DNA from: Promethearchaeota archaeon
Lineage (GTDB): Archaea; Asgardarchaeota; Hermodarchaeia; Hermodarchaeales; Hermodarchaeaceae
Assembly: GCA_048939625.1 (NCBI GenBank)
Contig: JBHLPH010000014.1
Span: 1 to 54,526 of the forward strand
DNA: 54,526 nucleotides
Reading direction: 5' to 3'
Shown here: in pieces, positions 48,154 to 48,359 of the stretch
Layout: every line of letters starts with the position of its first letter
Position numbering within the stretch: position 1 is the stretch's first letter
The notes under the pieces: model-generated
Database searches by the model: none
What the model was told of the DNA's origin: nothing
What the model saw: only the letters and a program-made list of their open reading frames with translations
Translations under genes and position numbers: made by a program

Positions 48154-48179
48154 AAAAAAGGGAACCCAAAATGGGTTCC
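48154..48179 (-). terminator. hairpin plus U-tract directly after the 14-aa ORF
   Basis: Minus strand reads GGAACCCA-TTT-TGGGTTCC-CTTTTTT. Confidence 0.55.
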
Positions 48180-48223
48180 TAAAGATTCACATCTGGAACA
48201 GGACATGATGGGGGGAATTCCAT
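48179..48223 (-). CDS. putative 14-aa peptide MEFPPSCPVPDVNL
   Basis: ATG..TAG with AAGGA upstream; codon-level similarity to the 10-aa ORF, including synonymous third-position differences. Confidence 0.45.
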   Translation of the reverse strand: MEFPPSCPVPDVNL

Positions 48224-48326
48224 CGAAAAGGTTTCCTTTTTCTTGTTCAGTTAATTTTCCAGGGATTTAGTGAATAAGGAATCTTATTGTGTTAGATGGC
48301 TCCGAGATGAGCTAGTGGTCATAAAC

Positions 48327-48359
48327 TTAGAATGGGTCGGGACGAGATGGGGGCCACAT
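48327..48359 (-). CDS. putative 10-aa peptide MWPPSRPDPF
   Basis: AGGAGG SD at 48376-48371, 11 nt before the ATG; TATA-like TTTAAAA at ~48418-48412. Confidence 0.5.
   Translation of the reverse strand: MWPPSRPDPF

Follow-up and report, generated by a model that had tools for sequence, protein, structure and literature searches.

A conserved ten-codon gene between paired regulator genes of Hermodarchaeota-like Asgard archaea suggests a putative peptide-plus-regulator circuit

The locus examined here lies in a 54,526-nucleotide (nt) stretch of DNA (hereafter the window) from the Promethearchaeota archaeon assembly GCA_048939625.1 (contig JBHLPH010000014.1, positions 1 to 54,526), which belongs to the Hermodarchaeaceae. 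Its subject is a spacer of 465 nt, read on the minus strand (48054-48518), that separates two co-oriented paralogous genes for putative regulators, the upstream one at 48519-50285 and the downstream one at 46302-48053; the spacer has a GC content of 37%, against 44.6% in the whole genome of 2.31 Mb and 83 contigs. Within the spacer, as a sequence-only reading of this DNA had reported, lie two very short open reading frames (ORFs), both on the minus strand. ORF1, which we call micro-gene A (48359-48327), runs from an ATG at 48359 to a TAA at 48327 (ATG-TGG-CCC-CCA-TCT-CGT-CCC-GAC-CCA-TTC-TAA) and its 10 codons spell MWPPSRPDPF, while ORF2 (48223-48179) runs from an ATG at 48223 to a TAG at 48179, encodes the peptide MEFPPSCPVPDVNL, and is of uncertain coding status. 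On comparative evidence, set out below, ORF1 is a genuine unannotated 10-codon gene under purifying selection at the codon level, and together with the paired regulators it suggests a putative peptide-plus-regulator circuit.

The sequence-only reading had drawn attention to a stretch of seven residues in which the two ORFs have five residues in common and two of the differences are synonymous, and had taken this similarity to favor selection on the peptide. The residue counts are correct, but the similarity is not significant alone: the corresponding 21-nt direct repeat (48194-48214 and 48333-48353) is identical at 16/21 positions, and of 200 dinucleotide-shuffled versions of the 465-nt spacer, 40 (20%) hold a 21-mer repeat with 16/21 or more. 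The spacer also contains further 20-nt repeats at 80% identity, and it is not itself part of a repeat family, since a blastn search of the spacer against its own genome returned no other copy. The loose motif [WYF]PP..P.P, which was defined post hoc, occurs 10 times in the 4.63 million residues of the six-frame genome translation, and two of these occurrences are ORF1 and ORF2. The case for ORF1 rests on the comparison with related genomes and not on the internal repeat.

The best relatives of the flanking protein are encoded by metagenome-assembled genomes labelled Hermodarchaeota or Promethearchaeota (Asgard archaea). All 14 genomes of the same genus carry the tandem pair of paralogs, and as their downstream proteins are only 43-66% identical to that of the window, neutral DNA is expected to be scrambled among them. 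An ortholog of micro-gene A with start, frame, stop, and core was recovered from each of these 14 genomes, from three further distinct metagenome contigs, and from two genomes of a sister genus. The orthologous spacers are barely alignable otherwise, yet the ATG, the frame, and the stop are kept, and a pattern in which nucleotides alone are conserved was not seen. Within the genus the layout, found 130-170 nt past the upstream stop codon, is GGAGG-N7-12-start-(x)-[W/Y]PPx[R/H]PxP-x(1-5)-stop, and across both genera the core of the peptide reads [W/Y/F]PPx[R/H]Px(mostly D/E)P. At the position flanked by the final two prolines, two orthologs have N or Y and the others an acidic residue (D or E). 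The start codon is ATG in the orthologs, apart from genome G007, which has TTG in both of its copies.

The pattern of variation within A is that of a coding sequence. Across the eight core codons the entropy at codon positions 1, 2, and 3 is 0.32, 0.38, and 1.10 bits, respectively, and in the four proline codons of 20 sequences there were no changes at the eight first and second positions and at least nine at the four third positions (P about 5e-5, computed as (1/3)^9). Only the frame of ORF1 is both open and conserved, the other five of the six frames over A being either interrupted by stops or poorly conserved, and RNAalifold found no structure in the region of the orthologs from the Shine-Dalgarno (SD) sequence through the ORF (-1.2 kcal/mol, 0 covarying pairs). 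Of 20 type-A sequences, 18 use CCC for the first proline of A (48351-48353 in the window), and the other three proline codons vary freely at position 3. An account of this invariant codon through codon rarity was rejected, as CCC makes up 26% of the proline codons genome-wide and is neither rare nor dominant, and +1 frameshifting at CCC-C was likewise rejected, the +1 frame being open but not conserved. Selection at the peptide level, claimed earlier for both ORFs, is therefore borne out for ORF1 by its start, frame, stop, and third-position variation in the orthologs, and is much weaker for ORF2; similarly, chance, which had been left open for both, is contradicted for ORF1, while ORF2 taken alone may owe its presence to chance or neutral decay.

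Micro-gene A is preceded by signals consistent with its translation as a free-standing unit. The sequence AGGAGG lies 11 nt ahead of ORF1, and its GGAGG (48375-48371, minus strand), inside the conserved GGAGGCATCC (48366-48375), is invariant in 17 of 18 aligned orthologs, the exception being the nearest relative, G003, with GGAGA. No 16S rRNA was found in the window's own genome; that of a same-genus genome ends in ...GGAUCACCUCCU / ...CACCUCCU (CCUCCU), to which GGAGG is complementary, making it a perfect SD sequence. A genome-wide test of SD usage was too crude to carry information, with 11% of GGAGG sites preceding an ORF of at least 80 amino acids (aa) against 6-9% for control pentamers. 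The TATA-like box of unit A, TTTAAAA (48418-48412, minus strand), sits inside a promoter block T5-8-GCA-N10-12-GGTCTTTAAA that is kept in most orthologs, with its TATA-like part about 45-50 nt ahead of the SD sequence. A run of T5-T8 followed by GCA or GTA occurs in 14 of 15 orthologous spacers; in the window the T-tracts (48452-48447 and 48441-48436, minus strand) and the conserved GCA span 48433-48452, T6-GCA being 48441-48433, and the T-run is likely the terminator of the upstream gene.

On the other side of A, a terminator-like perfect hairpin, GGAACCCA-TTT-TGGGTTCC (48179-48161, minus strand), is followed by T6 runs at 48159-48154 and 48150-48145, and its first base is the last base of the TAG of ORF2. 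A GC-rich hairpin with a T-rich tail lies downstream of A in 14 of 15 spacers, and the consensus hairpin of the alignment has seven pairs, four of them with compensatory double changes. The earlier description, of a unit standing alone with a TATA-like box on one side and a hairpin with a U-tract on the other, thus holds in most orthologs, where both signals are kept; the transcript that it had put at 230 nt would be about 100 nt in most relatives, in which unit A comprises a single ORF. An Rfam scan of the window at gathering thresholds returned tRNAs only and no match within the spacer. Beyond the terminator of A, a block of about 70 nt that leads up to the downstream paralog (AATCGGAAGGTAGAATTA..CTTGTATAG..TGGATGGC) is kept genus-wide at the nucleotide level and could be the downstream gene's own promoter or operator, or an element of its 5' untranslated region (UTR); in the window the block ahead of the paralog (..GATAGAATTA..CTGTATAG..ATGGATGGC; 48045-48096, minus strand) is conserved at the nucleotide level and is a candidate promoter or operator. 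Flanked by the putative T-run terminator upstream and by this promoter-like block, A appears to form its own unit between two others. At the annotated start of the downstream paralog (ATG 48053), the sequence (A/T)TGGATGGC is followed in five or more orthologs by a stop at codon 4, and GTG, ATG, or TTG follows five codons on in most, so the true start is probably GTG 48038 and not ATG 48053.

Second copies of A have arisen and decayed repeatedly in the genus. G007 carries a perfect second copy and G001 two intact but diverged copies, one of the W type and one of the Y type; the second copy in G012 has P-to-A and P-to-L changes, that in G002 has lost its ATG, that in G004 is frameshifted, and the sole copy retained in G005 matches the second copy of G002. 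The loci with tandem second copies are L011 (perfect), L016 (intact, diverged), and L012, L018, and L022 (decayed), and at least one intact A copy is retained in every case examined. The core of ORF2, F-P-P-S-x-P-x-P, agrees with the sister-genus form MFPPSRPDPAPG. In G003, a 14-codon ORF with the start and stop positions of ORF2 encodes M-N-Y-L-T-S-H-P-V-P-D-V-S-L; over the C-terminal half it differs from ORF2 by three synonymous changes and one replacement, and the PP is lost. From these comparisons ORF2 is probably a diverged, possibly decaying tandem copy of A within unit A, and whether it still functions we regard as somewhat more doubtful than not.

A third member of the family, micro-gene B (46252-46284), lies on the plus strand and encodes MYPQRPIFPF; it is convergent with the downstream paralog, and its stop is 17 nt from the stop of that gene. 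Unit B has a TATA-like box, TTTTTATA (46194-46201, plus strand), for which the orthologs have TTTATATA or TTTAAA about 55 nt ahead of the ATG, and an SD sequence, GGAGG (46237-46241, plus strand), within GGAGGCAT, for which they have GGAGG(C/T)AT; as in type A, GGAGG stands 7-12 nt ahead of the start. B is present wherever the flank was assembled (contig L020 ends before B), and its ortholog peptides include MYP[PAQ]RDPFP[SC], MYPPQHPFPY, (M/L)YPPRPxxPVPS, MSYPR[IL]RP..., and MYPARPTDPY. In the seven closest sequences the entropy at codon positions 1, 2, and 3 is 0.26, 0.48, and 1.02 bits. Most B orthologs have a T5-T8 run within 10-30 nt of the stop, and L088 and L112 have a hairpin with a T-run; in the window a T7 run (46352-46358, plus strand), antisense to the 3' end of the paralog, is a candidate terminator of B. 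Since no gene follows on the same strand, B is not a classical leader. A minus-strand ORF at this place, MPPSGFSNNCPTSVV, was considered and rejected, being the antisense of the SD and start region of unit B and not conserved as an ORF. In the window's own genome the combination of GGAGGCAT, a start codon, an aromatic-proline beginning, and a short proline-rich ORF is found only in A and B. A, ORF2, and B are one family of proline-rich peptide genes of 10-14 codons, with three members in the window, and A and B are very probably both real translated genes. Separately, on contig C9 of the same genome (about 166918, minus strand), GGAGGCGTACTT-ATG opens the eight-codon ORF MIPIPFLP, the sole other ATG-started short proline-rich ORF of up to 10 codons in the scan with a GGAGGC-type SD sequence.

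The micro-genes occur only beside the regulator pair in this family of Hermodarchaeota-like Asgard archaea. A degenerate pattern of SD sequence plus ORF matched 14 of 400 genomes of the phylum, all of this genus and all at this locus, and a reversed control pattern had no matches in the same 400 genomes. Two sister-genus genomes, G016 and G017, contain close paralogs, and in each an A-type unit precedes a paralog on its own strand at a distance of about 265 nt; their A units share the promoter block (checked in G016) and the hairpin with T-run. In two others of that genus, G015 and G018 (81-83% complete), neither close paralogs nor a micro-ORF was found, and no micro-ORFs were found near the distant third paralog on contig C9 of the own genome or near distant homologs in other families. 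As related genomes are not independent, these counts overstate their statistical weight. A pattern scan of metagenomes gave 88 matches, mostly unrelated, and contributed three new Hermod-type loci. Among the matches were five contigs of 56-64% GC (L062, L076, L117, L066, and L095) with GGAGG and 9-10-codon ORFs of the forms MCPPSHP(E/Q)P and MVCPPKRPHP; these contigs have no regulator homolog and unrelated contexts, and their number is compatible with chance.

The two regulators share one architecture, an N-terminal zincin-like domain followed by tandem Lrp/AsnC-like modules of a winged helix-turn-helix (wHTH) and a RAM domain; the upstream paralog (48519-50285, minus strand) has 588 aa and the downstream one (46302-48053, minus strand) about 578-583 aa, and they are about 30% identical. 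Pfam and NCBIfam gave only sub-threshold wHTH matches on the regulators (MarR/HTH_24 in Pfam), with no TPR and no peptidase. With 22 orthologs and paralogs as input, AlphaFold gave a model with a predicted local distance difference test (pLDDT) score of 83, and a model of the N-terminal 205 residues alone reached 86. In the model, residues from about 205 to 578 match the fused Lrp/AsnC-like protein NirDL (Foldseek E 8e-8), single AsnC/Lrp structures are matched with probabilities of 0.96-1.0, and the Atlas neighbours of the regulators carry HTH_AsnC-type domains. All 50 best structural matches of the N-terminal domain (residues 1-205) are zincin metallopeptidases or TAF2, the top one being the M1 aminopeptidase factor F3 with Z 9.5 over 174 of 205 residues, a score that exceeds only moderately the Z of 7-8 which the tool gives as background for best matches, in a list that is uniform. 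The modelled domain has the mixed sheet, active-site helix, and glutamate helix of a zincin fold; it is not classed as an active peptidase, because HExxH is absent from all 22 regulator sequences, the corresponding helix reading W-R-E-A-x-L. Residues invariant between the paralogs lie in an edge strand, P-R-F-G-A-x-E (R51, G53, E56), and in two helices, W88-R89-E90..L93 and D108-L109-G110, and both helices form the zincin cleft in the model. By position, FGAxE may be equivalent to the GAMEN motif of M1 peptidases and REAxL to HExxH. The modelled structures support a description of the regulators as a zincin (M1-aminopeptidase-like) domain without the HExxH zinc ligands, joined to two Lrp/AsnC wHTH-plus-RAM modules.

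The wider neighbourhood, which in the window includes the interval 50592-52799 (minus strand), comprises a MoxR-type AAA ATPase, a VWA protein, in some cases a tRNA-Met, the regulator pair, and a class I aminoacyl-tRNA synthetase, and it recurs in several loci of the genus; this conserved neighbourhood contains no transporter or exporter and no peptide-modifying enzyme. Two observations on structural RNAs stand apart from the micro-genes. At 45995-46055 (plus strand), adjoining the tRNA-Ala at 45804-45878, there is a weak Rfam tRNA match (31.6 bits) that ARAGORN did not call and that may be an atypical or intron-bearing tRNA. In G005, the 16S match (L141:619-4212) spreads model positions 1-1478 over about 3.6 kb of DNA, so that the gene contains large insertions or introns, and one short insert lies just ahead of its 3' end.

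The explanation that we find most likely, at a probability of roughly one in two, is that A and B each stand alone as a peptide gene and that their products bind the flanking regulators; the peptide-ligand mechanism specifically is put forward more tentatively. Under this explanation the A and B peptides would be made and would act in trans. Methionine aminopeptidase does not remove the initiator methionine when W, Y, Q, H, or K follows, and X-Pro bonds stop most aminopeptidases. The various N-termini (M-, MQ-, MK-, MH-, MT-, and MS-) might all be trimmed to a common aromatic-proline start, at whose resistant bond aminopeptidase trimming would halt, and this would explain why an extra residue after the start is tolerated and a change of the core is not. 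The trimmed peptides could then serve as protease-resistant ligands that occupy the conserved cleft in the pseudo-peptidase domain of the regulators, and a ligand in the cleft would modulate DNA binding by the regulator. In its fullest form this would be an archaeal switch in which unprocessed proline-rich decapeptides are the cognate ligands of a disabled M1-like sensor coupled to tandem Lrp/AsnC modules, with two or three peptide genes matched to the two paralogous receptors, a proposal that we consider rather unlikely as it stands.

Several points weigh against ligand binding by the flanking regulators, and against the coding value of ORF2. The zincin assignment is one of fold only, and a sequence-profile search of the PDB with the N-terminal domain returned nothing. 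The peptides have no export signal, and why a cell should encode a cytoplasmic ligand is not obvious. Gene order within the genus is conserved by default, so the co-occurrence of micro-genes and regulators is weaker evidence than it seems. Most prokaryotic ORFs of up to 15 codons are leaders that act in cis, PP and P-D/E-P belong to the classical stalling motifs, and in both genera A precedes a same-strand regulator gene with a terminator between them. As to ORF2, only G003 has an ortholog, which is absent from the other 13 same-genus genomes; the stretch of DNA that the window and G003 share down to the next gene is 77% identical anyway; and ORF2 in the window has no GGAGG.

The position of A ahead of a regulator gene, with hairpin and T-tract in between, is what the chief rival explanation would predict, namely a cis-acting proline-stalling leader of the MgtL/MgtP kind with the peptide as a by-product. 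Translation of PP and P-D/E-P would make ribosome progress depend on aIF5A, prolyl-tRNA, or Mg2+, and the position of the ribosome would set termination at the hairpin and T-tract and hence read-through into the regulator gene or, for B, antisense read-through into that gene's 3' end. PP and prolines with acidic flanks are the type of motif that pauses or destabilizes ribosomes on MgtL (PMC12856214), the regulatory proline codons are conserved, and the near-constant CCC of the first proline hints at an effect at the codon level. The stop lies 0-8 nt from the hairpin in L009, in L020, and for ORF2 in the window, but across the orthologs the stop-to-hairpin distance varies between 6 and about 150 nt. 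A 5'-UTR segment of the window, AAAAAGGGTACCCAAAA (48382-48397), can pair with the 3' arm of the terminator and its T-run (48146-48171) at -18.3 kcal/mol, with z = -3.9 relative to shuffled sequences; for 12 of 14 orthologs the pairing has z values of -1.1 to +0.6, and beyond the window it appears, weakly, only in L009, the nearest relative. An anti-terminator formed from the 17-bp inverted repeat of the window was accordingly rejected, since it is not kept in those 12 orthologs. The aromatic, Arg/His, and acidic positions are moreover conserved as well as the prolines, and B has a candidate terminator of its own. The lack of a conserved anti-terminator, the variable spacing of stop and hairpin, the promoter-like block of the downstream gene past the terminator, and the absence of a downstream gene for B together favor a trans-acting peptide, and we regard the leader as unlikely.

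The same codon conservation of A and B is compatible with peptides that are made and act elsewhere, either as an exported signal or as a non-hydrolysable inhibitor or decoy of M1 or prolyl peptidases, in which case the link to the regulators would reflect co-regulation or inherited synteny only. X-Pro-Pro N-termini resist most aminopeptidases, and the short proline-rich bradykinin-potentiating peptides inhibit zincins, which lends this idea some plausibility. It is nonetheless improbable, as micro-genes and close paralogs occur together or not at all in two genera and nowhere else in the 400 genomes of the phylum, and no exporter, signal sequence, or modification enzyme accompanies them among the MoxR, VWA, tRNA, and aminoacyl-tRNA synthetase genes of the conserved neighbourhood. 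A non-coding element that mimics an ORF, such as an operator motif for the neighbouring wHTH proteins or a small structured RNA, could draw on the nucleotide conservation of GGAGGCAT and of the CCCCC run and on the operator-like arrangement of A and B as inverted copies flanking a regulator gene. The three-base periodicity of variation in both micro-genes, the persistence of start and stop codons despite turnover of the flanks, the loss of start or frame in decayed duplicates while one intact copy always stays, and the lack of a consensus RNA structure or Rfam match in the spacer make it very improbable. That two short ORFs in an AT-rich spacer share a C-rich word by chance would agree with the frequency of such repeats in shuffled spacers and is hardly credible given the conservation of A in every ortholog examined.

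The preferred explanation, of peptides that bind the flanking regulators, invites comparison with the RRNPP cassettes of Bacillota and phages, among them Rgg-SHP, ComR-ComS, PlcR-PapR, and AimR-AimP (PMC4873490). In both, a tiny peptide gene with its own expression signals adjoins the gene of a cytoplasmic DNA-binding regulator in tandem or convergent orientation, and copies duplicate and diverge along with paralogous regulators. Unlike the TPR receptors of RRNPP systems, the receptor here would be a zincin-like pseudo-peptidase with tandem Lrp/AsnC modules; the ORFs have 10-14 codons, with the core beginning at residue 2-3 and neither a leader nor a signal nor a hydrophobic segment for export; the vicinity lacks exporter and Opp genes; and the host is an archaeon, in which the pairing of peptide and receptor is putative. 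In Salmonella, the proline-codon leader ORFs mgtL and mgtP (PMC12856214, PMC6460261) resemble A in being short 5' ORFs with prolines and acidic residues (P-D/E-P, PP), separated by a termination signal from the gene that follows. The locus described here differs from them in that alternative RNA structures are not conserved, the spacing from ORF to terminator varies, the downstream gene has its own promoter-like block, the homologous unit (B) has nothing downstream, and non-proline residues are conserved. The system belongs neither to RRNPP nor to the mgtL/mgtP leaders, which are its nearest analogues in mode of action.

As regards the regulators, their C-terminal two-thirds resemble the Lrp/AsnC (FFRP) family and NirDL/AhbAB in consisting of two wHTH-plus-RAM modules, to which the flanking proteins add an N-terminal zincin-like domain of 200 aa. 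In known Lrp/AsnC members the RAM domain is the sensor for amino acids or small molecules, and in the literature searched neither a peptide ligand nor an adjacent micro-gene is described for this family. TAF2 of TFIID offers another parallel, as a protein of the transcription apparatus with an inactive M1/zincin-like fold whose chains match at Z 7.6; the resemblance is at the level of the fold only, with no sequence similarity and a much smaller domain here, and homology is not claimed. Searches of the literature on Hermodarchaeota, archaeal leader peptides, proline-rich small ORFs with Lrp, and archaeal RRNPP did not return a description of the system.

Annotation pipelines do not see genes of 10-14 codons, and to our knowledge almost no stand-alone conserved genes of this size are known in Archaea. 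Here, comparative data alone reveal two such genes in uncultivated Asgard archaea, both under selection at the codon level and accompanied by decaying copies. If the peptides are stalling leaders, the locus would provide an archaeal counterpart of MgtL-type translation sensing, which as far as we know has not been demonstrated in Archaea so far. If they are ligands, it would represent a new design of a peptide-sensing transcription switch in which a dead protease is reused as a sensor, and the architecture of the receptor would bear no relation to the RRNPP proteins of bacteria; we know of no earlier peptide and receptor regulatory cassette in Archaea, and the switch would be the first. Under either reading the system is compact and open to study with synthetic peptides and recombinant protein.

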